DNA of 64,000 nucleotides, from assembly GCA_965263355.1 (NCBI GenBank), contig CBDHHL010000046.1, positions 98,554 through 162,553 of the forward strand, given 5' to 3'. Source of the stretch: Leptolyngbyaceae cyanobacterium. Its GTDB lineage: Bacteria; Cyanobacteriota; Cyanobacteriia; Phormidesmidales; Phormidesmidaceae. This document shows positions 6,049-58,781 of this stretch, piece after piece. The notes under the pieces are model-generated. The model did not search any database and had not been told where the DNA came from. It worked only from the letters and a program-made list of their open reading frames with translations. A program made the translations under genes and the position numbers. Within the stretch, counting starts at the first letter, position 1; each line of letters starts with the position of its first letter.

Positions 6049-6057
6049 AAAACCCCC

Positions 6058-6952: not shown

Positions 6953-6981
6953 GGCTACCTTAGCCCAACCCCTCGGAGATT

Positions 6982-7848: not shown

Positions 7849-8168
7849 TATTCTCCTCCTGTCTGGGAGACAATAACTTGTTTTGATAAGCCCCGAGGGC
7901 GTGTTTGAGTTCGAAGATTGAGTTGTGACCTTGCAACCTGAATAACTCGCCTACAAGACCCACAAGATGAGTGAATCCCTTGAGAGTTCGTAAATATCCT
8001 TGTAGGCCTTCCACAAAGATCGCAAAGAATTTCTTGGACACGCTGAGCCTGAGGTATTTGCTCCTCAGGAAGAGACACCTCTGCGGTTTTTTGCTCTGTA
8101 AAAAATCCCGCCCCAGGAGTTAAATCAACTTTTGACTCCTTGGGTCCACGTGATTTGGACATAATCAC
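7848..8168 (-). CDS. Zn-ribbon protein
   Basis: CDLC ... CGSC. Confidence 0.6.
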   Translation of the reverse strand: MIMSKSRGPKESKVDLTPGAGFFTEQKTAEVSLPEEQIPQAQRVQEILCDLCGRPTRIFTNSQGIHSSCGSCRRVIQVARSQLNLRTQTRPRGLSKQVIVSQTGGE

Positions 8169-10290: not shown

Positions 10291-10488
10291 ATGGTCAAAG
10301 CACTCATCACGCTTACTATAGCGGCACTTATTTTGGTTCCGAAAGTCGTTCCTGACATAGGAATCTCAGTGGATTTAATCGCAGCTGTTCGACAATTAAG
10401 CCGGCTAGAGGTCGGTGTATTGTGTTTTCTAGCTGGCTTAAACATAGACCTTAGACCACTTTGGTCAAAAAGAGGAGACAAGAAATGA
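10291..10488 (+). CDS. Small membrane protein
   Basis: Hydrophobic segments; stop overlaps the next ATG. Confidence 0.55.
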   Translation: MVKALITLTIAALILVPKVVPDIGISVDLIAAVRQLSRLEVGVLCFLAGLNIDLRPLWSKRGDKK

Positions 10489-12572
10489 ATGACTACCAAA
10501 AACTAATCAACTCACTCCCTTCAGAGTTGTCAACTATACCTAACTTAATGTTAAATACTTTCCCAATCATATTGGAGTTGGGAGGCGACGGCGTCAAAGC
10601 CTCCACTGAGGTGCATGAACAAAAAGCCTCAGCTGAATTCCCTAAAGAGGTGGCACGATGCCTCAGCGGAATACAGAATCTCTTCTTAGTCCTTAATGGA
10701 TCTAATGCGGCCTATGAACAACTAACTGCTTGCCAAAAAAAGGACAAACTTAGTCTTGCATCTTTCCGAGATTGGCACAGTGCATCATTAGACGCACTAA
10801 AGCATCTATCCCTGTCTTGGAAAAAGGAAAATCGAGACTTATCCGATGCAGAAGCTAACAATCTCGCGATACACTCCTGCTGTGCTTTTTTAGCCTGTGG
10901 GGATGCAGGAAAGATCCCCAGAATATACAATAAGTACTCAAAAGGGTACGGCGACCATGATGGTATGCTAGCAGTGGCAGCCAAACACGGAGATTTAGTA
11001 GAACTAGCATCTCTTCCGGATGAGCAGCAAACAGCTTTCATCGCCTTAGCAGGACTAAACTGTGGAAAAGCAGTGCTTGGAGAGTACTGCTACCCAGAAC
11101 TTAGGAACATACTAAATGGGGCATCGCCACTAGCACGATCCATAAAATACCTAGAATTTATGGCAGATGTGTCTGGTGCGGCAGGGCACGTGGTCTTTAA
11201 CGGCTCCTTGGTCATGGGAGAAAATACCTACAGGGTGTTTGATGACCTATTTACGGCTTTGGCCGATTGGGATTACAGCTCAAACTCTGTATGGCATTTT
11301 CTGCAGAAACAACGGGAGTACCTACTGCCCGAGCCAATCTTACGACTAGCGCTTTTGTGTAAAACAAGAAATTTTAAGGACTTATTATCTGTCACGAAGG
11401 CATTTGAAGGGTGTAATAAAATCACGCAACACATCCTTCAACGAGAGAGCAATGTGTCGTTCACATATGGACCAGCCCTACTCAGCAATCTAGAGTCCGA
11501 CGAACCATTAAAAGACTTCTTCATCGTGCTGGCTCGGGTACTTCAGAGAGCTCGATGCGAAGGTCTTGGAAATAACCAAATACAGGAGCTGTGTTTCCAT
11601 GCCCTCACTGACCAATTCGGCAAGGGTAAGAGTGAACATATTCAAGATCTGGCATTCAGTTTTGATGGCGTTTCCGTCATAGGGACTCCCGTCAAACAAG
11701 TAGCCTCAACAAAAAGAGGGGGACTGAAGACTTGGCACAAAGATTTTATAGCCATTGGTTGTGGAGGTGGAGCTGACAGCGTTAGCGCCGCACTGTTAGC
11801 AGATTGGTTACCAAACCTAAAAAAGAGGCTAAAGGGTGTAATTAGTACCCGAGGAGAATTTTCCGGGTCTCCTACTCCAGACGCCCCAATAGGGACCCGA
11901 AGAGTTCCGAAAGCACGGGAGATATCTGACGGCGTGTTTCTCATCGAACATGACTCCACCTTCAAAGGAAGAGGCTATGAGGTAGATCTAGCAAAAATGC
12001 TAGACGTACCACTTTTGTGGGTAGCAGTACCTAAGGATGATGAAACTCTGAAAGCACGACTTAGTGCAGCCCGGGAGTACATCAACCAAAACGCCACTCT
12101 TGTGGGCGTAGACACCGGAGGGGACTCCATTTGTAGTGCTTCCTATAATGAAGGCAGTCCGGATCAAGACTTCCGAGTACTACAAGCACTTCATCAACTG
12201 GATGACCACGCTCTTCATATTGTCGTCGCTCCCGGCATCGACACACATCCAGAAGACCTCTTGAAATTTGTTGAACTGGAAACAACCAAAGTTCAAGAGA
12301 TCGACCCCATATTAGTTTTAAGTTCTTATGCCAAGTTAGGAATTTTAGAACCTTCATCTGGAAAGTATTCCAAGACCGCATTGGCCCATGCTGCCTTCCA
12401 ACGCAAGGCAGCAGCCAATGATGAAACAATTTGGAGCGAGCTCCCGTTACCTTTTGAACTGATTGATAGAGAGGATAATGCTTGGGATCCGTACGTTCAT
12501 GGGCACCCCATAAGTAGTTCTTTAGTGCTAAGCCCTGTAAGTAAGACCTTAGAATTCCACTATGGAAAATGA
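10485..12572 (+). CDS. Two-domain protein: HD-like metal-binding N-terminus plus DUF1152-like C-terminus
   Basis: N-terminal GDAGK/DHD/ADVSGAAGH; C-terminal GCGGGAD, GVDTGGDS and APGID. ATG at 10485 has an AGGAG SD. Confidence 0.6.
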   Translation: MNDYQKLINSLPSELSTIPNLMLNTFPIILELGGDGVKASTEVHEQKASAEFPKEVARCLSGIQNLFLVLNGSNAAYEQLTACQKKDKLSLASFRDWHSASLDALKHLSLSWKKENRDLSDAEANNLAIHSCCAFLACGDAGKIPRIYNKYSKGYGDHDGMLAVAAKHGDLVELASLPDEQQTAFIALAGLNCGKAVLGEYCYPELRNILNGASPLARSIKYLEFMADVSGAAGHVVFNGSLVMGENTYRVFDDLFTALADWDYSSNSVWHFLQKQREYLLPEPILRLALLCKTRNFKDLLSVTKAFEGCNKITQHILQRESNVSFTYGPALLSNLESDEPLKDFFIVLARVLQRARCEGLGNNQIQELCFHALTDQFGKGKSEHIQDLAFSFDGVSVIGTPVKQVASTKRGGLKTWHKDFIAIGCGGGADSVSAALLADWLPNLKKRLKGVISTRGEFSGSPTPDAPIGTRRVPKAREISDGVFLIEHDSTFKGRGYEVDLAKMLDVPLLWVAVPKDDETLKARLSAAREYINQNATLVGVDTGGDSICSASYNEGSPDQDFRVLQALHQLDDHALHIVVAPGIDTHPEDLLKFVELETTKVQEIDPILVLSSYAKLGILEPSSGKYSKTALAHAAFQRKAAANDETIWSELPLPFELIDREDNAWDPYVHGHPISSSLVLSPVSKTLEFHYGK

Positions 12573-16149: not shown

Positions 16150-16560
16150 TCACAAGTCATCTTTTAGCCTTTTTTTAAGTGCTCTCGGGCCTAACTCTTT
16201 CAAGCTCGCCAACTCTCTCTGTGCTTGCCTTAGCGCTCTAGTTTTACGCGCATTTTGCAACGCTGTATAGGCCCCATAGCCACCACCTACTATGGCTCCA
16301 TGTGTCGGTCCCAGAGCAGCGTTATTGCGATAGGCAATGTCCCCCAAAGCTTCACCAGACACCGAGCCTAGAAAACCCGAGGCTGCGCCTGAACCTACAT
16401 CGCGTAATAGCTCTACAGGCGTTCTATCTTCCTCACGAGCCCCATAACCTCCCGCCAACGCCCCCAAAATAGTAGCGCTAATAGAGGGTGCATAAGCCTG
16501 TTTCTCCAATTGATAAGGAGCCTCCCAAGAGTAAATTAACTCCTTAGCATTCATAATCAT
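16150..16560 (-). CDS. K-x-A-tag glycine-zipper protein (putative virion cargo)
   Basis: NAKELIYSW...EKQA; GxxxG segments; TAGAAT-N6-ATG upstream. Confidence 0.7.
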   Translation of the reverse strand: MIMNAKELIYSWEAPYQLEKQAYAPSISATILGALAGGYGAREEDRTPVELLRDVGSGAASGFLGSVSGEALGDIAYRNNAALGPTHGAIVGGGYGAYTALQNARKTRALRQAQRELASLKELGPRALKKRLKDDL

Positions 16561-19688: not shown

Positions 19689-20294
19689 GTGGTGAGTCCC
19701 CAAATATTACTGGTTAAGTACTCCAAAAAATCCGAGAAACTATTCTTGGAATTACTGCAACATAGCAACTCAATTGAAAACGACGTCGCACTCGAGACTC
19801 TGAAACAGATCGGACCTATAGAACCTTCCAGCGAGGGAGTAACAAGTCTCCCTCTCAAAGGTCCTTTAATCCTGATGATGCCCACTTCCGTGAAATACAT
19901 CTCAGAGGAGATCTCCATACCAGGTGATACTGTGGAAACGATTGAAAATTTTGCCATCCGAAAAACTGTCGAACACTTTGACGGAAGTACAATTAGGGCA
20001 GCTAGGGTCCTTGGTATAAGCCAAAGGAAAATCCAAGCAAAACTTAAGCAATGGAGAAAAGAAGAAGCAGAGTTAGAACGTAAGAAATCTAACCTAGAGG
20101 AATTTCAAACATTGTGCCCGTATTGCCATTCAATTTGTTGTTGCGAAACTTCTCAAAGCGTCGATGGAAATCTAGAGCAATGTGCCCCCTATACCTGCGA
20201 TAGTTGTGGTGCTCGGGAAATAGGGTTAGAAAATCCAACCGGTTTAGAAGGCATAGAACGAAAAACAGGGTGGTATCGAGGCCCAATCCAGTAA
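19689..20294 (+). CDS. Fis-type HTH (sigma54-activator C-terminus) fused to a Zn-ribbon
   Basis: IPGDTVETIENFAIRKTVEHFDGSTIRAARVLGISQRKIQAKL; CPYC...CDSC. Confidence 0.75.
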   Translation: MVSPQILLVKYSKKSEKLFLELLQHSNSIENDVALETLKQIGPIEPSSEGVTSLPLKGPLILMMPTSVKYISEEISIPGDTVETIENFAIRKTVEHFDGSTIRAARVLGISQRKIQAKLKQWRKEEAELERKKSNLEEFQTLCPYCHSICCCETSQSVDGNLEQCAPYTCDSCGAREIGLENPTGLEGIERKTGWYRGPIQ

Positions 20295-22120: not shown

Positions 22121-22283
22121 CTCGTACCTTACTCAACACAATTGTATTTTAGAGGCTAGCATTGGCTACGACGATATGGCATAAAAGCCAAGACGGGTCT
22201 GAAAGCGGTGTTCGAGCTTGGATCTTCACTTTGGGGTGCATGTTGATTAGCTATGTTAGACGGACACTCTAACATAGCCTCTT

Positions 22284-22357
22284 AGGCCTTTAGCTCAATT
22301 GGATAGAGCAACCGAGGACTTTTCGGTAGGTTCGGGGTTCGAATCCTTGAGGGCCTG
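22284..22357 (+). tRNA. tRNA-like gene with an Arg-type body and a non-canonical anticodon loop (GGACTTT); no encoded CCA
   Basis: AGGCCTT/AGGGCCT acceptor, GCTC-AATTGGATA-GAGC D-arm, ACCGA/TCGGT anticodon stem, CGGGG-TTCGAAT-CCTTG T-arm. Confidence 0.75.
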
Positions 22358-22446
22358 AGGGAGGAGATGACAATAAATTTTCTCCCCCGTAGCGAACAAC
22401 TTTTGAACAAAGTTATGCCTGCATTGTCATCTCCTCTCGTTAATCT

Positions 22447-22475
22447 TGAAATTAGCCCGAACTTATTGGGGTAAG
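22447..22475 (+). promoter_or_regulatory. Class-A promoter variant TGAAA-N19-GTAAG
   Basis: GTG 6 nt downstream; TAAGAATTAGGTGAA context identical to 42227. Confidence 0.7.
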
Positions 22476-22481
22476 AATTAG

Positions 22482-22559
22482 GTGAACAAAATCACAAGCG
22501 CACTCGCGCACATCGAACACGCTTTCCTAAGTCTCGGCCCAATCGAGGAAGCAGTATAG
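22482..22559 (+). CDS. 25-aa leaderless peptide MNKITSALAHIEHAFLSLGPIEEAV
   Basis: Fills the space between a class-A promoter and a TTTTAGCTA terminator. Confidence 0.6.
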   Translation: MNKITSALAHIEHAFLSLGPIEEAV

Positions 22560-22560
22560 A

Positions 22561-22603
22561 GAGGGGGATGGGTAGTATAAAAGCTATTCATCTCTTTTAG
22601 CTA
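22561..22603 (+). terminator. Hairpin plus TTTTAGCTA
   Basis: GGGATGGGTAG/CTATTCATCTC stem; AGTATAAAAGCT top identical to the hairpin at 12833-12864. Confidence 0.75.
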
Positions 22604-23300: not shown

Positions 23301-23440
23301 GATTACTCAGGGGTTGGTATGCACGAAGACTTCTCCTGCTGCTTCTGCCTTCTGTATGGTGCATACCAACATAAGCTTGATAACAAAGTTTTTCACATAA
23401 TGCACGAAGATTTTGCTTTTGTGTGCAAAGTCTGGGTACG

Positions 23441-23812
23441 ATGCAAGCTATGCAATCACGCATAATCCTTGTAGAAAATAATGAACATACGCGTAAGGCT
23501 TTATTTACGTTGCTGGAGCATGCGCAAGAAGTTACAAATCCAGCCAGTCTTACTGCATTGGATCAGTTAGCGAAAGAAGACCTGATGGGAGAGAAGAATC
23601 TTGAAACTGGCTTAGAGCCTAGTAACCTAACAGCAATTTTGCTTTCTGCCCACTCTTACGCAGGGAAAACTCTTAAGCAAGTCAAGCAAATGCTAATTTC
23701 GGAAGCTCTAGAAGCCTGCAACCACAATACTTCCAAGGCAGCAAAAATGCTTGGCTTGAGCACACGAACGGTCCAATACCAACGGGCCCGTTGGCGTAAC
23801 GAATCAATTTAG
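23441..23812 (+). CDS. Mini NtrC-like protein: receiver-like start plus Fis HTH, no AAA+ domain
   Basis: RIILVENNEHTRKAL; GKTLKQVKQMLISEALEACNHNTSKAAKMLGLSTRTVQY. Confidence 0.75.
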   Translation: MQAMQSRIILVENNEHTRKALFTLLEHAQEVTNPASLTALDQLAKEDLMGEKNLETGLEPSNLTAILLSAHSYAGKTLKQVKQMLISEALEACNHNTSKAAKMLGLSTRTVQYQRARWRNESI

Positions 23813-30519: not shown

Positions 30520-31041
30520 TCAGTGTTCAATAGCCTCTAAAATCTTACCTATATTTTCACTAAGAACTACTCGCTCAACTGAAGAAAAAGGAATAGAGTT
30601 CAGTCTCCTATTCATTTCATCCTCATCTGTAATATAACCAGCAAGAGAAACGCCTGCTCGTTTTAACTTATTAATAATACCCGCAACCATTTCTTCTTCT
30701 TCTTTTTGAGTCATGGCTTGACGCCCACCCAAGGCAGCAACACCTGCACTACCTAAGGCGCCGAGTCCTGCCCCTAACAACGCATTTCTACCAAGATGGT
30801 TTAAGTTTTTGGTACCTAGAATGCCTGTTAAAAGTCCTGTAGTAGAACCTAAAAGCCCTGAAGTGGCTCCAATGGCTGTTGCTTGTGTTAAGGTTTTGGG
30901 ATAATCATCTCGGGCTGTTCTTTTAGCTAATTGGCCAGAGAGGTACATAGACGCAGGTACTGAAGAAGCGGCTAAGAGTGTTTGTAACCCAGGATTTGCC
31001 GTCTTTTCCCAATGATGCACTAAGTCTTTAGCTGAGATCAT
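30520..31041 (-). CDS. WEKTA-family glycine-zipper protein
   Basis: MISAKDLVHHWEKTA; ARDD.P; RNALLGAGLGALG; TAAAAT-N7-ATG upstream. Confidence 0.8.
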   Translation of the reverse strand: MISAKDLVHHWEKTANPGLQTLLAASSVPASMYLSGQLAKRTARDDYPKTLTQATAIGATSGLLGSTTGLLTGILGTKNLNHLGRNALLGAGLGALGSAGVAALGGRQAMTQKEEEEMVAGIINKLKRAGVSLAGYITDEDEMNRRLNSIPFSSVERVVLSENIGKILEAIEH

Positions 31042-31091
31042 ACCCGGGATTTTAAACCCAAGCATAGCAACTCGGGAACCTGGCTTACTAT

Positions 31092-31622
31092 TTAGTCTTC
31101 AAGAGCTGTAAAAACCTCCTCTAAATTAGATGAGAGTATATTCCGTTCTAGTTGAGAAAGGCCTAATGAGCTCAAACGACGATTCATTTCATCTTGATCT
31201 TGAAGATACCCGGACAAAGAAATGCCAGCGCCTTTTAACTTTGCAAGAAGCTTATCCATGGACTCTTGTCTCTCGGATAAAGTTGGTGTGAATCGACCAG
31301 CCAAAGCTCCTAGACCAGCACCCGTCAAAGTACCCAAGGCTGAGCCTAAGAGCATATTTCTTCCAGGGTTAGGAGAATTAGCGGAAGCCAGAAACCCCGC
31401 TGTAGCGCCTGTGGTAGCACCTAAAAGACCTGAGTAGCGTCCAAGGCCTTTTGCGATTCTTCTCGTTTCTGGGTCGTCGTCTCGAGCCATTCTTTGAGCT
31501 ACATGGCCGGATAGGTATGAGGAAGCAGGCATAAGAGCAAGGGAGCCCAACATCTGCTTTACGCCAAGTGAGTCATTGGCGGTCTTTTCCCAGTGACTCA
31601 CCAACTCTCTAGCTGAAATCAT
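31092..31622 (-). CDS. WEKTA-family glycine-zipper protein (tandem paralog)
   Basis: MISARELVSHWEKTA; DEMNRRL shared with 30520; TAAAAT-N6-ATG upstream. Confidence 0.8.
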   Translation of the reverse strand: MISARELVSHWEKTANDSLGVKQMLGSLALMPASSYLSGHVAQRMARDDDPETRRIAKGLGRYSGLLGATTGATAGFLASANSPNPGRNMLLGSALGTLTGAGLGALAGRFTPTLSERQESMDKLLAKLKGAGISLSGYLQDQDEMNRRLSSLGLSQLERNILSSNLEEVFTALED

Positions 31623-33516: not shown

Positions 33517-34047
33517 CTATTCAGATTCTTTTTCTAGGAAAGATAAGAAATAAGTTTCCTTTGCAGATAATCCTGAATCTCGGTTTATCTGATGTTTTTC
33601 TTCCATTGGAATTTCTTGGCTGAGATAATAATCTAAAGAAACACCAGCATCGATTAATTTTTGTTTGGCGTTTTCTGTGGTCTGGTTAATTTCTTCTTTT
33701 GTTGGTGTGTAGTGTCCCTTTAAAGCAGCAAGCCCCATGCCGCCTAAGGCGCCTAGGCCTGCACCTAAGAGCGTATTTCTTGGTACGTGCCTTGGATTCT
33801 GAGTGGGGAATGCGCCTGTCATAGCCCCTAAGGAAGCGCTCATTAGGCCTGACATGGCTCCTGTTCTGGTAGCAGACCTCAAGGTGTACGGCTCATCATC
33901 TCGGGTAAAAGCTCTTGCTACTTGGCCAGAGATGATTGCTGAGGCTGGGATGGTCAAAGCAGCAAGATAAGGTGCAGGTACATTTTCTAGGCCTTGAAAA
34001 GCTGCTGTTTTTTCCCAGTGATTTACTAAATCTTTAGCTGAAATCAT
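33517..34047 (-). CDS. WEKTA-family glycine-zipper protein
   Basis: MISAKDLVNHWEKTA; TRDDEP; RNTLLGAGLGALGG. Confidence 0.8.
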   Translation of the reverse strand: MISAKDLVNHWEKTAAFQGLENVPAPYLAALTIPASAIISGQVARAFTRDDEPYTLRSATRTGAMSGLMSASLGAMTGAFPTQNPRHVPRNTLLGAGLGALGGMGLAALKGHYTPTKEEINQTTENAKQKLIDAGVSLDYYLSQEIPMEEKHQINRDSGLSAKETYFLSFLEKESE

Positions 34048-36267: not shown

Positions 36268-37713
36268 ATGGACAACTCGTTTGTTTTAGAGCTGATTAAG
36301 ATTGCTAAAACCAAAACAAAGCTTTTACCGCACCAAGAGCGTGTAGTCGAACGTTTAAAAAGGCCTTCAACTACTGGACTTGTTGTAGCTCATGGTCTTG
36401 GCCGAGGAAAAACTCTTTCCTCTATTGCTGCTCAAGAAGCCCTTGGATTGGATGCTGATGTTGTAGTGCCTGCGGCATTACAAGCCAACTACCTAAAAGA
36501 AGTAGATAAGCACACGGAAAATTCCAAGCTAAGAAGAAACTTAGTTTCTCAACAAAGAGTTTCTCGAGCGAGCCAAGAACTAAGAAATAGAATGTTGATT
36601 GTAGATGAAGCACATAAGGCCAGGGAGACAGGTTCTAAGTTAAAGTCAGAACTTAAAAGGAATGACGCACAAAAGAGGATGCTTTTAACAGCCTCCCCTT
36701 TCTATAATCATCCAGCAGATCTCGCCCCACTTGTAAATCTAGCTTCTGGAGAACGTGTTTTTCCAGAAACTAGGGGGGAGTTTAACAAAGAATATATTAC
36801 AAGACAAAGAATTAGGCCGGGTATTATAGGATTTTTGAGAGGTATAAAATCAGGGACAAAGGAAACTATAAACCCAGCTAAAGTCGAAGAACTTAAAAAT
36901 ATATATAATACTTATGTGGACTATGAGCCAGGTGCCTCAGATGAATTTCCAGATGTAACGGAGGAGACTGTTGAGGTTCCTATGACCAAGAGACAAGGCA
37001 AGATATATGATGCTCTCTTGGGCGCAGCACCTCCTTGGGTGGCTTATAAGGTGAGAAATGGGTTACCGCCTAACAAGCAAGAAGTAGGAGAGCTGAACGC
37101 CTTTTTGAGCGCTGCTAGACAGGTCTCTAATACGACGAAGGCTTATGATGCTAAGAACGCTCCTGAAGCGCCTAAGATTCAAATGGCAGTTAATAGCCTG
37201 CAAGAGATGTTGAATGAGAATCCTAGGAGCAAGGCCGTTGTGTATTCGAACTTTTTGGAGTCTGGAATAGAGCCCTATGCAAATGAGCTTTCTCGTCGAG
37301 GGATTCCTTTTGGGCAATTTACTGGAAAGCAAAAACAAAAAGAACGAGACCAAATGGTGAGAGATTATAATGAAGGTAAGTTGAAAGCGCTGCTCATCTC
37401 TTCTGCGGGAGGTGAGGGCTTGGATTTAAAGGGAACCAGGCTGATGCAAGTATTAGATCCACATTGGAACCATGAGAAACTAAGGCAAGTCAAAGGAAGG
37501 GGTATTAGATATAAAAGCCATGCCGGTCTTCCAGAGGATGAGAGGAATGTGAAGATTGAAAACTATTTAGCTGTACGACCTAACACAGTAATAAACAGGA
37601 TATTAAGCAAAGTAATACCAACCACTTCTTCTGACAAGTATATGAAGTCCATGGCAGATGATAAACAAAATCTAGTTGAACAATTTACAGATATTTTGGA
37701 GTCAAATCGATAG
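36268..37713 (+). CDS. SNF2-family (SF2) helicase/ATPase with an N-terminal FVLELIKIA tag
   Basis: LLPHQ, HGLGRGKT, IVDEAH, LLTASP, GGEGLDL, DPHWN, QVKGRGIR. Confidence 0.9.
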   Translation: MDNSFVLELIKIAKTKTKLLPHQERVVERLKRPSTTGLVVAHGLGRGKTLSSIAAQEALGLDADVVVPAALQANYLKEVDKHTENSKLRRNLVSQQRVSRASQELRNRMLIVDEAHKARETGSKLKSELKRNDAQKRMLLTASPFYNHPADLAPLVNLASGERVFPETRGEFNKEYITRQRIRPGIIGFLRGIKSGTKETINPAKVEELKNIYNTYVDYEPGASDEFPDVTEETVEVPMTKRQGKIYDALLGAAPPWVAYKVRNGLPPNKQEVGELNAFLSAARQVSNTTKAYDAKNAPEAPKIQMAVNSLQEMLNENPRSKAVVYSNFLESGIEPYANELSRRGIPFGQFTGKQKQKERDQMVRDYNEGKLKALLISSAGGEGLDLKGTRLMQVLDPHWNHEKLRQVKGRGIRYKSHAGLPEDERNVKIENYLAVRPNTVINRILSKVIPTTSSDKYMKSMADDKQNLVEQFTDILESNR

Positions 37714-37726
37714 TTAGCCGCTAAGC

Positions 37727-38218
37727 TTAAATTGATAACAAATATCGTTCGTTGGGAGATAAGTTGAGTTGTTGTTCTATTTTGGCGGATTCCTCAACAG
37801 ATGCGTCCTCGTCCAAATACCTTTCCACAGGTATACCAGCTTGCTCAAATTTCTTTAAGGCATTGTCTACGATTTCTTGTTTCTCGGCTCTTGTAGGCTG
37901 GGCTCGACCCGCCAAAGCACCAACACCAGCGCCAGCTAAGCCGCCTATCGATGCACCAATGAGGGCATTTCTAACCCTATTTCTTGGGTCTCGTGTCGAG
38001 AATGAACCGTGTGAAAGTCCTATGCCAGAGCCTACTAGGCCGTTAAGAGCTCCTAAATACCCTGCTGCTTGCAAAGTGCTCGGGGCATCATCCCTCGCTA
38101 CGGCTCGGGCAGCGAGGGCTCCCAGCGCTGCTGAGGCGTTTGGTATGGCAACGAGAGAAGCTGCGCCTAGGCTAGCAGTCTTTTCCCAGTGATTTACTAA
38201 ATCTTTAGCAGAGAACAT
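37727..38218 (-). CDS. WEKTA-family glycine-zipper protein
   Basis: MFSAKDLVNHWEKTA; ARDDAP; RNALIGASIGGLAG. Confidence 0.8.
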   Translation of the reverse strand: MFSAKDLVNHWEKTASLGAASLVAIPNASAALGALAARAVARDDAPSTLQAAGYLGALNGLVGSGIGLSHGSFSTRDPRNRVRNALIGASIGGLAGAGVGALAGRAQPTRAEKQEIVDNALKKFEQAGIPVERYLDEDASVEESAKIEQQLNLSPNERYLLSI

Positions 38219-38293: not shown

Positions 38294-38314
38294 GATAAGG
38301 CATTTTTGACGTAT

Positions 38315-38343
38315 TGAAATGTTTGGGAGTGTTGTGGAATAAG
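38315..38343 (+). promoter_or_regulatory. Class-A promoter TGAAA-N19-ATAAG
   Basis: Exact match; ATG 7 nt downstream. Confidence 0.8.
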
Positions 38344-38350
38344 AATAGTA

Positions 38351-39049
38351 ATGTCTAACAAACAGTTAATGAACAACGCACTTCAAACAGATGTCGTCAA
38401 AGCCAAAGGAGCGCGACGTTTCACCGAGGAACATGTGTGTGATGTGTGCGGTAACCGTCGCAAATGCTATGAGAAGGAAATAGCGCGCGATGGGAAAGAA
38501 ATACATATTTGCCAAGAATGCTTAGACAAGAATTATCGCACTCTGGCTATCATTTCGGAAGGCTTCCCGCACGATCCAATATTCGATGTCAAAATCCTAG
38601 CATTTTGCGAAACAAACCCCCCAACGATAAAAGAGTTGGAGGAGACATTTGCAGATGAAGACCTCCTCTATACTGTATACATCGGTATGGATTACCACTT
38701 CTATGGGGCTGAAAAGGATAGGGTAGCGATACAACAATCCAATCTCTCTCTTATAAAAAGTATAGAGAAGAGAGAATACGAAGGAGGAGAGTGGTTAATT
38801 CAAACGTTTTTGAGCAAGTTAGGAGAAGGCGAGCAAATTTCCGAGATTGAAAAAGCCTATCTTCAAGGATGGGTGACAATTGCTCACCCTCTTAACGAGG
38901 AAAAACGAATACTCGCAGTATTAGAGGCTCTAGAAATACCATTTGAGGACAAAGACTTTCACAGGAGTACGCATCACATCAGGTACATGCCACTCTCTGA
39001 AACAACAGTCTCAAATCTAGCACTACACTTACTTCATGTCGGCGTTTAG
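38351..39049 (+). CDS. Zn-finger-containing protein (leaderless)
   Basis: CDVC ... ICQEC. Confidence 0.75.
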   Translation: MSNKQLMNNALQTDVVKAKGARRFTEEHVCDVCGNRRKCYEKEIARDGKEIHICQECLDKNYRTLAIISEGFPHDPIFDVKILAFCETNPPTIKELEETFADEDLLYTVYIGMDYHFYGAEKDRVAIQQSNLSLIKSIEKREYEGGEWLIQTFLSKLGEGEQISEIEKAYLQGWVTIAHPLNEEKRILAVLEALEIPFEDKDFHRSTHHIRYMPLSETTVSNLALHLLHVGV

Positions 39050-39114
39050 AAATCAAGCTCCGTAGAATTTGAAAAAGATGATTGATAAATAACAATTTGT
39101 CGTAAGGCAAAAGG

Positions 39115-39142
39115 AGGGGAGGTGTAACACTTCTTTTTAGTA
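39115..39142 (+). terminator. Hairpin plus TTTTTAG
   Basis: GGAGGTGTAACACTTCTTTT, same as at 42634. Confidence 0.7.
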
Positions 39143-39164
39143 TGCAGTTGTTGTGCCATTAAAG

Positions 39165-39193
39165 TGAAATCCGCCTACCATTTGTGTGATAAG
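39165..39193 (+). promoter_or_regulatory. Class-A promoter TGAAA-N19-ATAAG
   Basis: Exact match; no start codon follows. Confidence 0.75.
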
Positions 39194-39199
39194 AATAGT

Positions 39200-39339
39200 A
39201 GCGGAAAAAGATTAACAAATCGCAACCAAATAAACAAAAGAACATCCGCGAGTCCCAAACAAAAAGAAACAAAGTGAACGAAAGTGAACGATGAAAGATG
39301 GGGCGGGGAAGTAAATAAATGCGAGCTTCCTTTAGCTAG
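39200..39339 (+). ncRNA. Putative ~140-nt A-rich small RNA
   Basis: Bounded by a class-A promoter and a GGAAG/CTTCC-TTTAGCTAG terminator; short stems enclose A-rich loops. Confidence 0.6.
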
Positions 39340-39406
39340 TAAGTAGAAATTTATTTACGTCATTTGGAGGGTACAAGATATTTAATTATTATGCGATAAG
39401 AACACT

Positions 39407-39492
39407 ATGAGCACTCACCCCCGAAATAATCAAAAGGCTCGAGAGCGGGAAGGGGTGGATGATGTAAAAACCATTCACTTCTTCTTTAGCTA
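39407..39492 (+). ncRNA. Putative ~85-nt small RNA (or short peptide unit)
   Basis: TACAA-N19-ATAAG upstream; hairpin-TTTAGCTA end. The ATG frame has no stop before the terminator. Confidence 0.45.
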
Positions 39493-39497
39493 TCTAG

Positions 39498-39791
39498 CTA
39501 GATGAAGTCAGCACTTATTTCTAAATTCTGGAAAAATCTGTTGATACTGTCCTGCTGCGCTAGGTCTATTTCACCCCTTGAGCACTCCCAATCCGTTTGT
39601 ATTCGAAGAATTTGACTTTTTAGTCTCTCAGAGGAAAGGGTAATTTTCAGCAAGAGGTACTTGCCCAAATTGGGCTGTATTAAAGAAACGTTCTCTATTT
39701 TCTGTTCCCTGCGAAATAACAAGGCTTCGTTAGTTATTCCGTTAGTTATAGCTAGGAATTCACTCGCTTCAGAGAGTCTCTTGATGTCCAT
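39498..39791 (-). CDS. Hypothetical protein, paralog of 34105
   Basis: LKITLS...LRIQTDWEC...SINRFF. Confidence 0.65.
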   Translation of the reverse strand: MDIKRLSEASEFLAITNGITNEALLFRREQKIENVSLIQPNLGKYLLLKITLSSERLKSQILRIQTDWECSRGEIDLAQQDSINRFFQNLEISADFI

Positions 39792-39971
39792 GAAAAAAAT
39801 TTACTCGCCCAATGTGTCGCTTGTTGACCTGTTCTTCAACAATTGAGTGAAATGGAAGCTGCCCCTGAGTGGCCCTCCTTTGCTTCAACATAATTGACTA
39901 GACCATTCGCCGTAGGACTCGTTACAATCGATAGTAAGTATCTTCTGCCTCTTCTAAATGGCTGGTGCAAA

Positions 39972-40000
39972 TGAAACTGGCAAAGACCTGTTGGGATAAG
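39972..40000 (+). promoter_or_regulatory. Class-A promoter TGAAA-N19-ATAAG
   Basis: Exact match. Confidence 0.75.
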
Positions 40001-40004
40001 AATT

Positions 40005-40102
40005 ATGAAAGGAGAATTTAGAATCGAGGGAGAAAGCAGGTAGCGAAAAGGCCATGGCCGTAAGCTCGAAAGTCCGATGTTGGGGCCTCGCTTTTTAGCT
40101 AG
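40005..40102 (+). ncRNA. Putative ~95-nt small RNA (or 12-aa peptide MKGEFRIEGESR)
   Basis: Lies between the promoter and AGCGA..GGCC/GGCC.TCGCT-TTTTAGCTAG. Confidence 0.5.
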
Positions 40103-40183
40103 TAATACAGTTGGTTGCGTAGCATTTAGGTGACTAGTTCTCTTACCGATAAAATTCTTTAAAAGCTGTGTTAGCCTCTCATC

Positions 40184-40465
40184 ATGAAGAAAGATATCCT
40201 AGAGCAACTTGTTAACTTGATTCCGCGATTTGTGGCTGCTGCCTTCATCATTATGGGCTTTATTGATTTTATTTACGAAACAGGACTGCTCAACTGGGTA
40301 GCTGCTGTCATCCTAATGGCTATAGGTGGTGCATTCCTCTTGTGGCTCTCTTTGAATTTGATTTGGTGGTTCGTTAAACCGGTCATCAATCTGTACAGAA
40401 TTTTAAGGGGCAAAAAGCCGATTACAGATAATCCGTTTGACCGATTGACCGATTGTGGTAGCTAA
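40184..40465 (+). CDS. Two-TM membrane protein
   Basis: Two hydrophobic helices. Confidence 0.7.
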   Translation: MKKDILEQLVNLIPRFVAAAFIIMGFIDFIYETGLLNWVAAVILMAIGGAFLLWLSLNLIWWFVKPVINLYRILRGKKPITDNPFDRLTDCGS

Positions 40466-40702
40466 AAAATTAAAAATTTTTAAGAAAAAATTGTCACTAA
40501 CTCACACAATAATTTTTTATCAGCAAGACCTCTCTCAAAAATTTTTTTAAAAAATCTGAGGAGGTCTTTATTTAAGAACAAGATCCAAGACCTTAACACT
40601 GCGTAGCAGTTTTGGCCCCCCACCTTAGAAGAGTTATAGCCATACTTGATATACGACTTATTGCGGTTGAGGATATTGAGTAACACTGCTACACACACGG
40701 TG

Positions 40703-41197
40703 ATGACTAACGAAAATGCATCATCAATAGACCGCACAACCGATACGATTCCCGACAGCCCTGCGGCTAAACGTCCTATATTCACCGAAGAGCAGATAGA
40801 GCAAATGTTGGGGCTCTTCTTGGGGGCGATCGTCAGCTCAAGAATGCTAATGATGGACGAATTTCTCCAAGGCTCTGCGACTACCCAAGAGCTTACAGAG
40901 CGTATCGATGAATTCACCCACTACCAAATATGCTGGGTAGAGGAGCAATTACGTCACCGCTTTAACTTGCCCCAAGAAAAAGTACAGGAATTGCTGGTGA
41001 AACAAACGAAAGCTACTCAATACTCTGTATTGAAGGAAATAGCGGAAATGGGCCTGAGGGACCTGTTAAGGTCTAAAAAGCCCGGCGAGATGGAGAATCC
41101 GTTGGATAGTCTTTATGAGAAAGACCTTAGAGAGACTATAGAGCTGCTTAATTCCAAGGCCCCGAAGCAGGAGCTGAAAACAGACCGAAGTTCTTAG
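40703..41197 (+). CDS. Hypothetical protein
   Basis: ORF from ATG 40703. Confidence 0.65.
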   Translation: MTNENASSIDRTTDTIPDSPAAKRPIFTEEQIEQMLGLFLGAIVSSRMLMMDEFLQGSATTQELTERIDEFTHYQICWVEEQLRHRFNLPQEKVQELLVKQTKATQYSVLKEIAEMGLRDLLRSKKPGEMENPLDSLYEKDLRETIELLNSKAPKQELKTDRSS

Positions 41198-41459
41198 CGA
41201 CAACTTCCTTTATTTTGTCGTTGTTGATTCCGTGACCGAAGGGCCCACGAAATATGTACCCCTTCTGTAGCAGCTCCTCTTCAATACTCTTTTCCATCTG
41301 AGGAACCTCTACTGCAATTACGTGGTCCCTACTCCGAGACACTTGCATGGCCCGCCCCATCCAATCGATGAGAACCTTAAAAGCTTCCGTGCTCAGGTCC
41401 AACATCCTGGCGCCGTCCTCTAGGGAACTAGCAATGGGCGGTAATTCATCTTGTTGCAT
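41148..41459 (-). CDS. Winged-helix-like protein, paralog of 21523
   Basis: ARMLDLSTEAFKVLIDW...ELLQKGYI. Confidence 0.65.
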   Translation of the reverse strand: MQQDELPPIASSLEDGARMLDLSTEAFKVLIDWMGRAMQVSRSRDHVIAVEVPQMEKSIEEELLQKGYIFRGPFGHGINNDKIKEVVAKNFGLFSAPASGPWN

Positions 41460-41505
41460 GGCTATTGATTAACACGCTCAAGTGCATTGCTGTACTGCGT
41501 CAAAG

Positions 41506-41534
41506 TGAAATTGGTGTGAGTTTATTGGTATAAG
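41506..41534 (+). promoter_or_regulatory. Class-A promoter TGAAA-N19-ATAAG
   Basis: Exact match; no ATG at +6/+7. Confidence 0.75.
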
Positions 41535-41540
41535 TATATT

Positions 41541-41735
41541 GAGGCCAAAAAGAGAACGGCCACACTCAAAAACCATTGCGGGGGGCGCGTATCCGCAAAT
41601 AACCAAAAGGAACCAATGAATAAGAAACACGCGAAGTCCGAATGATGCAAATAGCGGGCGAGAGAAGTAGCAAATCCGAAAGGTGCGCTCAAGGCTACCA
41701 AGGCCAAGTCCCACAAGGAGCTTCTCTTTAGCTAG
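41541..41735 (+). ncRNA. Putative ~195-nt multi-hairpin A-rich small RNA
   Basis: GGCC/GGCC, TTGCGG/CCGCAA and GAGAAG/CTTCTC stems; ends GAGCTTCTCTTTAGCTAG like the 39200 RNA. Confidence 0.6.
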
Positions 41736-42181
41736 TACCTACTTTTTCCCTAGACCGACTAGCAAAGATATGGACCCGTCTTAGAGGCTGGACCAAGACC
41801 AATTTAGACGATTACTTGCAAAACCGGTGTTAGCGATGCGTATACGCTATTTGTCAGTATAATGAGGAACAAGGCCTTGGACGATGTGCACAAGAGACCC
41901 CATGTCTATATTGCAGATCGTTCAGAACAGCTCGGTAACCAAACGCCCCTTGCTCAATCGCACGTAACGAAGCGAACCAAAACGAGAAGCGTGCTCTACT
42001 TTGTGAGCTATGCTCTTAGCCACAGAAACGCGGCTACGCCAAGCCCCATCAAAGTTCTCTAATTCACACGTATTATGCGCACCAGGGCCATATTCGTATG
42101 TAGCACTCTTTACACGCACAAAGTAAATATCGGTAGTGCTAAACGCTTTCATTGCTTTAAGCACTACCACGTAAAAGAGAT

Positions 42182-42197
42182 AATGACACGTGTCATT
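42182..42197. promoter_or_regulatory. Palindrome AATGACACGTGTCATT
   Basis: Third exact copy, 4 nt upstream of a class-A TGAAA box. Confidence 0.75.
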
Positions 42198-42201
42198 GCT
42201 G

Positions 42202-42230
42202 TGAAACTACGCACCCAATATCGGGATAAG
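42202..42230 (+). promoter_or_regulatory. Class-A promoter TGAAA-N19-ATAAG
   Basis: Exact match; GTG 6 nt downstream. Confidence 0.8.
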
Positions 42231-42236
42231 AATTAG

Positions 42237-42593
42237 GTGAATACAAAGGCTAAAAGCCCACCAAATGGCGTCTCTGAAGCCGACGTCCTCGCCTACGACC
42301 TAGACGAGCTCGTGAAAACAATGAAACTCACGAAGCTGACAGAAGCCCAACGGAAAAGACTCAGAACAAAGATTGAGAAGCTAGACAAAGCAACCGAAGG
42401 CGCGACCTTGGGAAGATCCGTGAAGGTGGTATGCGACCTCTCAAGCGGTAACGTGAGAGAAGACGTAGAAACGCCCGCAATAAAATGGGCAAAGCGGATA
42501 GGAGTCGTAGCAGCAGCCCTAGCAATTGGTGGATTCACAGTCTGGGCGGCCATGAAAGCCGCTGAAATAGCCGAGCAGCACCTCGTAGACTAA
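42237..42593 (+). CDS. C-terminal TM protein (leaderless)
   Basis: IGVVAAALAIGGFTVWAAM. Confidence 0.75.
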   Translation: MNTKAKSPPNGVSEADVLAYDLDELVKTMKLTKLTEAQRKRLRTKIEKLDKATEGATLGRSVKVVCDLSSGNVREDVETPAIKWAKRIGVVAAALAIGGFTVWAAMKAAEIAEQHLVD

Positions 42594-42630
42594 CTGCTGG
42601 GCCTCGTGCTGGAGGCCTGGCCCCTAACAG

Positions 42631-42657
42631 AAAGGAGGTGTAACACTTCTTTTAGCC
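42631..42657 (+). terminator. Hairpin plus TTTTAGCC
   Basis: AAAGGAGGTG-TAA-CACTTCTTTT. Confidence 0.75.
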
Positions 42658-43056
42658 AGTAATTTGAAATTTGAGGAGTATAAAATTTTCGTGTGGTAAA
42701 CCGGTGAGCCTACCGTGTCCCGTGTCTGATAGTGGTAGCAGTAGAAGTTGTCGTAGTAGTGGTGATGATAGAGGAAGGGGAGGGGGGAAGTGTTCTGTGT
42801 CTAGCGATGGTGATGTTCTGTGTTTAGTGTGTCTAGAGTCTAGGGAGGTATAAGAGGTTGTTGCTCACGCCTTTAGTGCCCGGTCCGTCTAAATTTTTCT
42901 TTGGGGTACTGGATAAGAACTTGTCTATTCTACTCTTGGGTCTATTAAGGCAATTTAGTTGCTTACGCTTTTAAGCCGCGGTCGTCCGAAAAAATCCTGT
43001 AGTGTTTGCCAATAAAACTTCACGACAACTCCATATAGTACTGCTATTAAGAGTCT

Positions 43057-43230
43057 ATGAAACCAAAACACATCACTTGGTGCCTTGCAGGCCTTGCTAT
43101 TTGCATACTCCTCATGAATTTAGCTTTAAATATTGTATTCGAAGATCTTTGGGAGCGCATTGACCATCTAGAGCAAAAGGTTGAGTTGCTTACGCCTTCA
43201 AGCTGCGACCTTCCTCGGAAAAAGGGCTAA
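43057..43230 (+). CDS. 57-aa single-TM coiled-coil protein (not in the ORF track)
   Basis: MKPKHITWCLAGLAICILLMNLAL...RIDHLEQKVELL; TAATG coupling to the next gene. Confidence 0.65.
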   Translation: MKPKHITWCLAGLAICILLMNLALNIVFEDLWERIDHLEQKVELLTPSSCDLPRKKG

Positions 43231-43415: not shown

Positions 43416-43576
43416 ATGATGCTGCCACAGTTTTGTTACTCGGAATAGGTCTGATGCTAGGTGTTTGTATTATTGTTGGGACGTTTATGGCGACAGAGTA
43501 CAAAAACCAGGTCATAGAAGCAGTGAAGATTCACTGCTCAGACCCTAAAACCGACGTAAAACACACTCTGGATTGA
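43400..43576 (+). CDS. Single-TM protein
   Basis: GGAGGAG SD; TM segment. Confidence 0.65.
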   Translation: MREEINDAATVLLLGIGLMLGVCIIVGTFMATEYKNQVIEAVKIHCSDPKTDVKHTLD

Positions 43577-52112: not shown

Positions 52113-52380
52113 CCTCCAGATTCAATCTGACGCGCATTTCTTTAGCCTTCTTCCTTAAGTTATTTAGCGTCTCTAGCTGCTCCCTTGCTTGCCTAGCTGC
52201 CTGCCTTAGATTCCCGAAATCGGAAACGACATAACCTGCGTCATGCAATACTATGGCTGCACTTTCCAAACGAATCACATGTCTCAACTCTTCCAAGCAA
52301 GAACGCAACCCAGCTACTACAGTTTGGGCATCAGATATCTGGTTATTAAGTGCCTCTAACTCTTTAAAAGATTCGTCCAT
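52099..52380 (-). CDS. Coiled-coil hypothetical protein
   Basis: 93-aa ORF in operon. Confidence 0.65.
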   Translation of the reverse strand: MDESFKELEALNNQISDAQTVVAGLRSCLEELRHVIRLESAAIVLHDAGYVVSDFGNLRQAARQAREQLETLNNLRKKAKEMRVRLNLEVDDV

Positions 52381-52744
52381 TGTTTGGCTCCAAGCTTGTT
52401 TGTGTCTTAGGTTGTGTTTTATCGAGTTGACCTAGTATATACCCATATATTGCCTTAACGTGCTCGTCTCTTAAGCGATAAAAGGCATGCCTACCTTCTA
52501 GTCTTCGATCCACTAATTGAAGATTTCTCAGAACTCTCAATTGGTGAGACACCGCCGATTGCTCCATTTTCAAAGTTTTAGAGAGGTCAGAAACACACAG
52601 GCCTTCCGCCTGTCGAGGGAACAATTGGTGGACAATTTGTAGCCTATTTGGGTCTGCCAAAGCCCTAAACAAGCTTGCGATTGCATTGGCTTGTTCTTCT
52701 TTTAAGAGGTTTGGTGTGCATGGATCGACTTTGCTGTCTTGCAT
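52364..52744 (-). CDS. ArsR/SmtB-family transcriptional regulator
   Basis: FRALADPNRLQI, LCVSDL, QSAVSHQLRVLR, RLEGRHAFYRLRDEHV. Confidence 0.9.
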   Translation of the reverse strand: MQDSKVDPCTPNLLKEEQANAIASLFRALADPNRLQIVHQLFPRQAEGLCVSDLSKTLKMEQSAVSHQLRVLRNLQLVDRRLEGRHAFYRLRDEHVKAIYGYILGQLDKTQPKTQTSLEPNNGRIF

Positions 52745-52955
52745 GAACGTAAGGCTATCGTGTTCATGTGTCAAAAAAGCAACAGCAAAGAATCTTATAA
52801 TCCACTTACTGAGTAATCTTAGCCTTACAAACAAGGGACTCCAATAAGAATGCTACTGCTTTTATTATTGTGGGGTCAGTCAATAACAGAGGGCCTTATG
52901 TGCCAATGCTTGGACCAAATGATCTAAGGAGGTAACCACAAAACTTCGATGAATT

Positions 52956-58091: not shown

Positions 58092-58676
58092 CTATGACTC
58101 GGGAAGTGTATCATAAACATATTCCATAAAGTCATACACGTCGTTTGTGCCTCCAGAGAATCCAAGATCATCACTTTGTTGAGACACTCGTTTGACATCT
58201 TCCTTTGTAGTCATTCCATTTATTTTGGCCTCCAGACGAATCCTAGACAGGTTTTCCTCGTGGGCAGTCTCCAAGGCCTCCCGGCTAGGGAGCTTACTCG
58301 CCTTCAAATAGCTTTGAGCTGCGGCAGTCGGGACACCCGCCAATAGCCCATATAATGCACCTGTGGTCGAACCGCGAAAGCCAAGCTCCCTGAGAGCTCC
58401 TGGCTTCAATGGAGTTTTCATCACTTTCGATGTGACAAGAGCTGGAAGCACAGTACCCGCAGTCCCAAGCAGCGCACCCGCACCCATACCAAGAATGGGT
58501 GTTGATACACCTCGACCAAAACCAGCTAGTGCAGCTTCCTCTCTGTTGCCTGACATAGCACCAGCTGCGCCCGCACCGGCGCTAAGAAGGCCAGAGGCCC
58601 CCAAAAATGCAGGTAGGGTATAATTGGCTTCTTTTTCCTTCCAAGAAGCAATTAGATCTCGAGCAGTAATACTCAT
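58092..58676 (-). CDS. K-x-A-tag glycine-zipper protein
   Basis: MSITARDLIASWKEKEA; several GxxxG hydrophobic segments. Confidence 0.75.
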   Translation of the reverse strand: MSITARDLIASWKEKEANYTLPAFLGASGLLSAGAGAAGAMSGNREEAALAGFGRGVSTPILGMGAGALLGTAGTVLPALVTSKVMKTPLKPGALRELGFRGSTTGALYGLLAGVPTAAAQSYLKASKLPSREALETAHEENLSRIRLEAKINGMTTKEDVKRVSQQSDDLGFSGGTNDVYDFMEYVYDTLPES

Positions 58677-58781
58677 AAGCACAGATTAAACGGGTACTTT
58701 TATGTTAAAAACGAAAAACCACAAAAATGACCCCTAACTGCCATAATCTCAATTTATAAACCAAGTCAGGAAGGCAAATCC

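Follow-up and report, generated by a model that had tools for sequence, protein, structure and literature searches.

We analyzed a 64-kb stretch of phage contig CBDHHL010000046.1 (hereafter, the window), in which an initial annotation had marked four promoter-to-terminator units with no convincing gene and had read them as small A-rich RNAs. The window is part of a large uncultured phage that belongs to a rare lineage. It covers about 40% of the 162,553-nt contig and is laid out as promoter-gene-terminator modules, with branches in the contig at 39346, 39417, and 42725. Its products include an amidase, a RecA-like protein, and an SNF2 helicase; the remainder are mostly proteins of unknown function. 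The features named in the annotation were found where it had placed them, and the four units are real as promoter-to-terminator units. They and their promoters are listed here by position in the window, with the rank of each promoter in the scan described below.

39164..39196, + strand: promoter of unit 1, GTGAAA-N19-ATAAGAAT, rank 5
39200..39339, + strand: predicted RNA 1, about 140 nt, no start codon at +1, TTTAGCTAG tail
39371..39403, + strand: promoter of unit 2, weak upstream box GTACAA, ATAAGAAC, rank 19
39407..39493, + strand: predicted RNA 2, about 85 nt, 5-bp stem 39408-12/39437-41 with 24-nt loop, 15-bp terminator hairpin 39447-39486
39971..40003, + strand: promoter of unit 3, ATGAAA-N19-ATAAGAAT, rank 3
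40007..40102, + strand: unit 3, about 95 nt, unpaired purine-rich 5' part, hairpin at about 40042-40096, tail, no shared motif
41505..41537, + strand: promoter of unit 4, GTGAAA-N19-ATAAGTAT, rank 2
41541..41735, + strand: predicted RNA 4, about 195 nt, 5' hairpin 41543-61, terminal stem 41660-68/41720-28

The promoter model for these units is RTGAAA-N19-ATAAGWAT, and ATAAGWA lies upstream of all four units as well as several genes. We scored the window with a matrix trained on seven promoters of protein-coding units that had been chosen for the start codon following them. Among 127,934 positions, the unit promoters ranked 2 (41530), 3 (39996), 5 (39189), and 19 (39396). Spacing was strict: TGAAA-N19-ATAAGWA occurred eight times, all other spacings from 12 to 27 nt together gave one occurrence, and every site was on the + strand. 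Because the training sites had been picked by their start codons, the independent check comes from the seven new + strand sites outside the cassettes that fell in the top 17 (a − strand site at rank 18 was left out of the count). All seven had an ATG or GTG at an offset of 11 to 12 nt. Six of them open frames of 25 to 239 amino acids; the seventh opens three codons, with an in-frame GTG 2 nt later. A start at offset 11 or 12 was thus common to all 14 coding promoters, and leaderless starts are predicted for at least 13 genes of the window. Given these offsets, the phage appears to start such genes without a leader, with +1 lying 11 to 12 nt after the first A of the motif. For the four units, this puts +1 at about 39200, 39407, 40007 (40005 in the initial annotation), and 41541. 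A generic scan for sigma-70 promoters and intrinsic terminators detected none of the unit signals.

The promoter has the same spacing as the sigma-28 (FliA) promoter described in Bdellovibrio, TTAAG-N16-CCGATA (PMC3627812), in that both consist of a 5-mer, 16 nt, and a 6-mer ending in GATA. The letters differ, with TGAAA-N16-(GG)GATA followed by AGWAT in the phage. This similarity is a resemblance only, by which neither the sigma factor nor the host is identified.

All four units, and the mapped coding units with them, end in a purine-rich/pyrimidine-rich hairpin followed by TTTAGCY. The string TTTAGCTAG was found seven times on the + strand and never on the − strand, with three of the seven copies closing units 1, 3, and 4; unit 2 ends in TTTAGCTAT. 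Several of the terminator hairpins are rich in G-U pairs and fold far worse on the opposite strand (−16.7 versus −4.0; −12.5 versus −0.1), which points to RNA. The local terminator energies of units 1 and 4 were weak (−9.2 and −10.0; background, −7.8 ± 4.0), and a scan with a hairpin cutoff misses the terminators of units 1, 3, and 4. Units 1 and 4 do end alike, as the annotation had remarked, but the likeness is mostly the phage's generic terminator, as CTTC(Y)...TTTAG also closes coding units at 36222, 39135, 42650, and 48216. Transcription of the units we infer from these signals, and the promoter class may be early or middle; the promoter and terminator code lets the early/middle program of an unannotated lineage be read from sequence. 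In three distant phages related through the helicase only, a hairpin followed by TTTTAGC was also present on the + strand (L003:20137, L005:18828, and L002:16391), and this tail may be used more widely.

In RNA 1, stem A (39201-05/39245-49) closes a 39-nt A-rich loop, stem B (39252-56/39300-04) closes a second A-rich loop that holds a tandem 10-nt repeat, AAAGTGAACG, at 39271-39290, and a terminal stem follows (39306-12/39325-31). The GC stems that had been pointed out here (GCGGA/TCCGC, GTCCC/GGGGC, and GGAAG/CTTCC) had pair probabilities of 0.91 to 1.0. RNA 4 has a comparable stem A (41586-90/41629-33; probability, 0.70 to 0.76) with a 38-nt A-rich loop, a stem B (41636-40/41655-59) that reads GTCCG/CGGGC where RNA 1 has GTCCC/GGGGC, and a possible pseudoknot (41576-81/41593-98). 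The 5' stem of RNA 2 had a pair probability of only 0.56. The description of the units as A-rich held for unit 1 (46% A, top 0.15% of windows) and unit 4 (37% A, top 4%), but not for units 2 and 3. Within unit 1, a helix between two loops (39220-24/39320-24) scored −6.3, too weak for us to claim it.

We compared the coding potential of the units with that of a control unit outside the family, which has the same promoter and terminator.

22446..22603, + strand: control unit with a 25-codon leaderless frame, 22482-22559

With its promoter at 22471, this unit has a GTG at +1 and a stop directly before the hairpin. A start at offset 11 to 12 combined with a stop before the hairpin was taken to mark a leaderless micropeptide gene; the control has both, and none of units 1 to 4 does. 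Units 1, 3, and 4 have no start codon at offset 11 to 12, and their internal frames span 6 to 33 codons. In unit 2, an ATG stands at +1 (offset 11), but the 32-codon frame that it opens runs through the hairpin to a stop at 39505, past the tail. In unit 3, an ATG lies 2 nt before the predicted +1 (offset 9) and opens a 12-codon frame (40005-40043) that stops at the foot of the hairpin. The absence of a convincing gene therefore stands for units 1 and 4, whereas the ATG at or just 5' of +1 makes it a matter of judgment for units 2 and 3. We consider units 1 and 4 to be noncoding RNAs with high confidence and unit 2 to be probably so, and we lean toward the same view of unit 3.

Three of the units share a 13-nt motif. 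It was seen first as CAAATAAMCAAAAG when units 1 and 4 were aligned, and a looser search then gave a third copy in unit 2. In this form, AAATAANCAAAAG occurs exactly three times in the window, compared with an expectation of 0.03, and none of 100 shuffles reached three. All copies lie inside units 1, 2, and 4, and the motif is absent from the 14 coding units.

39228..39240, + strand: shared motif, copy in RNA 1, mean unpaired probability 0.98
39424..39436, + strand: shared motif, copy in RNA 2, unpaired probability 0.87
41597..41609, + strand: shared motif, copy in RNA 4, unpaired probability 0.83

The motif lies 28, 17, and 56 nt after +1 in RNAs 1, 2, and 4, respectively, and always in a predicted loop. 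These loops measure 39, 24, and 38 nt, and each is closed by a 5-bp stem. The center base of the motif is different in all three copies. When one mismatch was allowed, a single extra site appeared (15361), which is within chance. Since the motif was defined after looking, we ran two checks. Shuffling the body of unit 2 recovered the motif in 2 of 200,000 trials. An unsupervised search for the longest word common to the three bodies returned 12 specified bases, compared with no more than 8 in 300 shuffles; units 1, 2, and 4 are one of four possible trios, and exchanging unit 2 for unit 3 reduced the best common word to 5 bases.

Units 1 and 4 resemble each other beyond the motif. In both, stem A is followed by an RA linker, GUCCS/SGGGC, and GAAGU/GCUUC, an order found in only these two places. 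Stem B differs between them by one two-sided change, and its G-U pairs occupy the same positions; both also have the terminal stem GAAGT/GCTTC. In a MAFFT alignment, the stems were not in register.

Unit 1 is also conserved in a relative. The region was present in three runs of one study, the best of which may represent the source sample; two of the three (X1 and X2) are from one sample. Both of these contain a second contig, which differs from the window by 8 substitutions and 12 gap letters over 39151-39346 (about 90% over unit 1). At an 80% cutoff, joints of equal depth in X1 pass over 38354-38478 and 38530-39125 in the neighboring gene, which puts most of that gene below 80% identity. Contig depth hints at additional partial cover near units 2 and 3, from which we conclude nothing. 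Seven indel events separate the two versions of unit 1 (+1 at 39204, −1 at 39219, +3 at 39223, +1 at 39235, −4 at 39270, +1 at 39279, and +1 at 39299). These indels break reading frames; the 5-bp and 7-bp stems remain intact, with two indels at stem edges. The indel behind 39235 places one extra A in the A-run of the motif.

Searches beyond this sample returned no further members. A blastn search of 38300-42700 against 50,697 phage records gave nothing real, as did the three matches to the common 3' end in viral contigs. The start pattern of unit 1 had four matches in metagenome contigs, none like unit 1 beyond the pattern itself. None of 25 matches to the promoter pattern came with protein similarity to the window, and none of 22 matches to the motif plus stem B had the downstream stems when inspected by eye. 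A pattern of motif plus tail, which covered only unit-2-like spacing, matched 77 loci (54 distinct), and none of the 54 had the promoter motif in the 90 nt upstream. Rfam gave no match for the units, and none to CrcZ/CrcY or antitoxin families either at gathering score in the window or at E values up to 10 within 39100-43100. A Yfr10 match at 40493-40582 (E = 2.4) was taken as chance. The sequence thus suggests an uncatalogued three-member RNA family of unproven function, with one unrelated unit beside it.

We tentatively propose that the RNAs of units 1, 2, and 4 serve as decoys for one factor that binds A-rich RNA. They would be three related noncoding RNAs made from the promoter class and terminator of the phage's leaderless single-gene units, each using a short G/C stem to close a large A-rich loop in which AAAUAANCAAAAG is exposed. 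Acting together, they would occupy one protein that binds A-rich single-stranded RNA. One exposed word that is kept in three separately transcribed RNAs with different scaffolds points most simply to one partner. Furthermore, a variable center and a tolerated extra A would be somewhat more in keeping with a protein site than with a seed for pairing. An early sponge or decoy role against a host RNA-binding protein or defense system had been suggested in the initial annotation; what stands of it is that the units appear to be independently transcribed, noncoding for units 1 and 4, and decoy-like in anatomy. Each RNA has a single copy of the shared motif rather than several, and unit 3 lies outside the family. 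The case is nevertheless stronger than it was then, because of the loop motif common to units 1, 2, and 4 and the conservation of unit 1 in a relative.

Candidate partners would be Hfq (through its distal face), ribosomal protein bS1, and other RNA-binding proteins of host or phage. The motif reads AAU-AAN-CAA-AAG, with the variable base at an unread third position. It contains one ARN4m1 as defined for the Hfq distal face (PMC4104026) and resembles the Hfq site amiE6ARN (PMC6422490). Windows of the ARN4m1 and ARN5m2 types number 12 and 15 in unit 1, 8 and 9 in unit 4, and 1 and 1 in unit 2; unit 1 falls in the top 1% of genome windows, yet not above its own shuffles. The specific likeness to CrcZ and Hfq titration that had been drawn earlier was not borne out, as AAnAAnAA occurs 1, 0, 0, and 1 times in units 1 to 4 and neither ARN runs nor GGA exceed composition-matched shuffles. 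Because A content explains the ARN-type counts and the defining features of CrcZ are lacking, Hfq is one candidate among several. Ribosomal protein bS1 binds enhancers upstream of Shine-Dalgarno (SD) sequences and is not required by leaderless mRNAs (PMC9031893), so it would suit a phage with many leaderless genes. If the decoy proposal is correct, the 13-nt motif would be bait for a host factor disabled by this phage lineage.

Several observations weigh against this proposal. Each RNA carries one copy of the motif, in contrast to multivalent sponges of the CrcZ type, and counts of ARN, ARN4m1, ARN5m2, and AAnAAnAA are no higher than in composition-matched shuffles. The host may lack Hfq or bS1. 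The 5-bp stem that encloses the motif arises in 10 to 33% of flank shuffles, depending on the RNA. Units 1 and 4 fold no more stably than their shuffles (z = −0.76, −2.22, −0.94, and +0.25 for units 1 to 4, such that unit 2 alone folds better), and stem B of RNA 4 is absent from the minimum-energy fold (−39.0 when forced versus −42.2 kcal/mol). The similarity between units 1 and 4 is modest, with a z of 3.35 with the terminator arm and 2.38 without it (17/1,000), and control pairs reach 3.44 and 2.64, the latter from unit 3 and the unrelated control unit. Conservation rests on one relative from one sample, at contig depths of 5.2 and 2; the chance that seven indels would miss the stems is about 0.13 by our own arithmetic, and no relative contig covers unit 4 in X1 or X2, where depth is flat.

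It is possible, though unlikely, that the RNAs instead act by base pairing, with the loop motif as a seed for a U-rich host RNA (complement CUUUUG-N-UUAUUU) and unit 3 directed at a C/U-rich target. The prophage-encoded anti-small RNA AgvB pairs with the G/U-rich seed of GcvB (PMC4104026), and units 2 and 3 have an AgvB-like layout in which a short exposed 5' part precedes a terminator hairpin (PMC4104026). In addition, an exposed, conserved word of 12 bases is seed-like. Against a seed are the center base, which is different in all three copies, and the extra A in the relative. With G-U pairs allowed, no complement was found elsewhere in the 64-kb window, which spans only some 40% of the contig and does not include the host genome. 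The base-pairing and decoy readings overlap, as AgvB also binds the distal face of Hfq.

Unit 3 stands apart from the family and may be a different RNA, the leader of the membrane-protein gene at 40184, or a 12-amino-acid gene. Its RNA may pair with a C/U-rich RNA. Among the six possible pairings between units, unit 2 with unit 3 was best (−15.4 versus −9.3 ± 2.3). For GAAAG, with three copies in unit 3 (P = 0.03) and two in unit 1 (P = 0.16), both values being post hoc, we make no claim.

A reading of units 2 and 3 as micropeptide genes, with 32 codons from the unit 2 ATG and 12 codons from 40005, seems quite unlikely. In its favor, the control (22482-22559) shows that a leaderless unit of 25 codons with these signals exists in the phage, the unit 2 ATG sits at the canonical offset of 11, and the unit 3 frame, like that of the control, stops where its hairpin begins. 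However, the unit 2 frame reaches the terminator without meeting a stop, and half of its sequence is hairpin, whereas all eight hairpin-mapped coding units stop first. In unit 3, the ATG offset is 9 rather than the 11 to 12 seen at 14 of 14 coding promoters. Unit 2 also carries the RNA motif, and its 32-amino-acid product was not in the protein collection, which is weak evidence as short frames are rarely called. Finally, this reading leaves units 1 and 4 unexplained, and the relative's indels break frames across unit 1.

We regard it as improbable that the units function as DNA, either as emptied gene slots or PeSL-like shuffling cassettes or with the 13-mer as a directional DNA-binding site. 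Asymmetric 13-bp operator sites exist in other phages. The modular layout and the contig branches would be in keeping with such elements, as would the unremarkable folding of three of the four whole units. Against this, 85 to 195 nt separate promoter from terminator here, the motif lies 17, 28, or 56 nt past +1 and always in a predicted loop, and G-U pairs occur within the stems. If the slots were decaying, they would not be expected to stay better conserved than the gene next to them. Moreover, PeSLs as described end in an SD sequence and start codon, with the stem-loop at the promoter (PMC2839356).

A further and very unlikely reading is that RNAs 1 to 4 form a device for translation takeover that would shift ribosomes from host mRNAs to the phage's leaderless mRNAs. 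In this scheme, RNAs 1, 2, and 4 would imitate the A-rich regions at which translation initiates and would sequester bS1 or a factor like it. Meanwhile, RNA 3, whose 5' part holds two SD-like words with no start codon behind them, would block the anti-SD. With the 16S tail, RNA 3 is predicted to form a duplex of −12.7 kcal/mol. The hairpin arm of unit 2 does nearly as well (−12.1), and the operon genes at 2289-8168 use SD sequences, so that any such effect would have to be transient; both points count against takeover. If the RNAs did favor leaderless translation, they would offer an RNA-only route to taking over host translation.

Decoy substrates or antitoxin mimics for an A-specific defense ribonuclease, for example of the ToxN/AbiQ family, are still harder to credit. 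Enzymes of this family cleave RNA at AAAU or AAAA and are restrained by RNAs with pseudoknots; the motif contains both words, and unit 4 can form a 7-bp pseudoknot helix (−9.9 kcal/mol). However, the only tandem is the 10-nt repeat rather than an array of 34- to 36-nt pseudoknots, units 1 and 2 have no pseudoknot helix, and the Rfam searches returned no antitoxin family. Least probable is that the units are leaders or antitermination sites that control read-through: they do share the promoter-site-terminator layout of nut- or put-like sites, but what comes after unit 1 is unit 2, which has a promoter of its own, the gene after unit 2 runs in the opposite direction, the next clear gene past unit 4 (42237) is served by a separate top-ranked promoter, and the motif is absent from the 14 coding units. 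For unit 3 alone, this last reading is plausible, as it is followed on the same strand by a 93-amino-acid membrane-protein gene (40184-40465) with no such promoter in the top 40.

Genes of this rare lineage had few relatives. The 232-amino-acid gene 5' of unit 1 had one (56% identical) among 1.84 billion 50%-cluster representatives, and a 288-amino-acid gene had two (48 to 51%). For the 164-amino-acid gene between units 3 and 4, none of similar length was found. Viral contigs and genome contigs contained nothing real for the 232-amino-acid protein, and an atlas search gave none at ≥0.9. Relatives of the helicase (L001 to L005) were 50 to 52% identical. Two helicase-related records that were read almost whole (G003 and G004) had only the helicase in common with the window and carried neither the promoter nor the motif; no similar cassette was present among three candidate sites, and TTTAGCTA was counted 29 and 23 times, respectively. 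Pseudanabaena phage PA-SR01 (first 50 kb) likewise had only the helicase in common with the window and is therefore no pointer to a cyanobacterial host. Among four helicase-related records there was no convincing sigma factor, with a weak partial match in one. In GTDB genomes, the promoter pattern had 28 matches, of which 22 lay inside long frames; most were apparently one conserved Flavobacteriaceae gene on the opposite strand, and no host could be inferred from them. Further related contigs in X1 and X2 matched 36280-37583 and 43440-43542, with a helicase about 81% identical, and several members of the rare lineage co-occur in that sample.

Other features of the window were recorded alongside. 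Six glycine/alanine-rich paralogs start with (M)xSAKDLVxHWEKTA and are 23 to 43% identical to the first.

16150-16560, − strand: glycine/alanine-rich paralog
30520-31065, − strand: glycine/alanine-rich paralog
31092-31622, − strand: glycine/alanine-rich paralog
33517-34047, − strand: glycine/alanine-rich paralog
37727-38218, − strand: glycine/alanine-rich paralog
58092-58682, − strand: glycine/alanine-rich paralog

Some of them have a second promoter-like word of the GGNTAAAAT type 6 to 8 nt 5' of the ATG, which suggests a second leaderless class. The control unit sits directly after an odd tRNA (22283-22358, + strand) that ARAGORN called Ser(ACT) and Rfam scored at 48.4 bits. Its body looks Arg-like, its anticodon loop (GGACTTT) has neither the usual U33 nor a purine at 37 and closes up until only 3 nt are left in the loop, and it has no CCA; it is possibly a tRNA mimic or a decayed tRNA. 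An acyl-carrier-protein-like gene (PF00550; 62539-62784, − strand) has GADP at what we take to be the position of the phosphopantetheine serine motif and is a possible nonmodifiable mimic of that carrier protein. A 703-amino-acid fusion of DUF6829 and DUF1152 is encoded at 10461-12572 (+ strand), two Fis-type helix-turn-helix genes lie at 19689-20294 and 23423-23812 (+ strand), and an ArsR-type regulator lies at 52364-52834 (− strand). Between 42660 and 43050 is a gene-free, low-complexity stretch rich in G and T, with a weak promoter-like site at 42913 (rank 22), a repeat in three copies at 42856, 42954, and 43181, and a contig branch at 42696-42725.

Compared with known systems, the RNAs of units 1, 2, and 4 have partial likenesses only. 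Like CsrB/RsmZ sponges, they display loops on short stems in a row. In CsrB/RsmZ, GGA stands in the hairpin loops; there are no GGA loops here, with two GGA per unit (shuffle means, 2.6 to 4.0) and both of those in unit 1 in stems. Type III antitoxin RNAs differ in having tandem pseudoknot repeats, in place of which there is one possible pseudoknot, in unit 4. With CrcZ/CrcY, the 426-nt RNAs of Pseudomonas that titrate Hfq-Crc (PMC6422490, PMC3480352), they share a stand-alone form and A-rich single-stranded stretches, but at 85 to 195 nt they are shorter, they are phage encoded, and they have one motif copy per RNA, spread over three RNAs. Nor was the RpoN-type promoter of CrcZ/CrcY found, as the units use RTGAAA-N19-ATAAGWAT like the protein genes, although no dedicated RpoN scan was made.

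Among phage RNAs, searches of open-access papers yielded no family that titrates a protein via a shared loop motif. Phage-encoded small RNAs are known to regulate or sponge RNAs (bioRxiv 10.64898/2026.06.19.733364; PMC4104026; PMC13501541), and many noncoding RNA candidates of virulent phages have no known function (PMC10914365). AgvB and AsxR are alike in being several short phage RNAs with an exposed 5' part, a terminator hairpin, and A/C-rich exposed sequence; their 3' part is conserved and their 5' seed variable (PMC4104026), whereas here the exposed loop motif is the conserved part. In addition, RNAs of the AgvB type measure 51 to 60 nt (PMC4104026), and the present locus is not a lambdoid moron site. 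The candidates from the virulent Pseudomonas phages phiKZ and PAK_P3 are likewise short, of unknown function, and conserved within a genus, but those described are derived from 5' untranslated regions, processed from 3' untranslated regions, or antisense (PMC10914365), while the RNAs described here have their own promoter and terminator and a common motif. Finally, T4-type PeSLs resemble the units in that repeated promoter and stem-loop signals bound small variable modules; PeSLs are terminator-promoter joints ahead of a gene, whereas the units here run from promoter through a structured body to terminator (PMC2839356).

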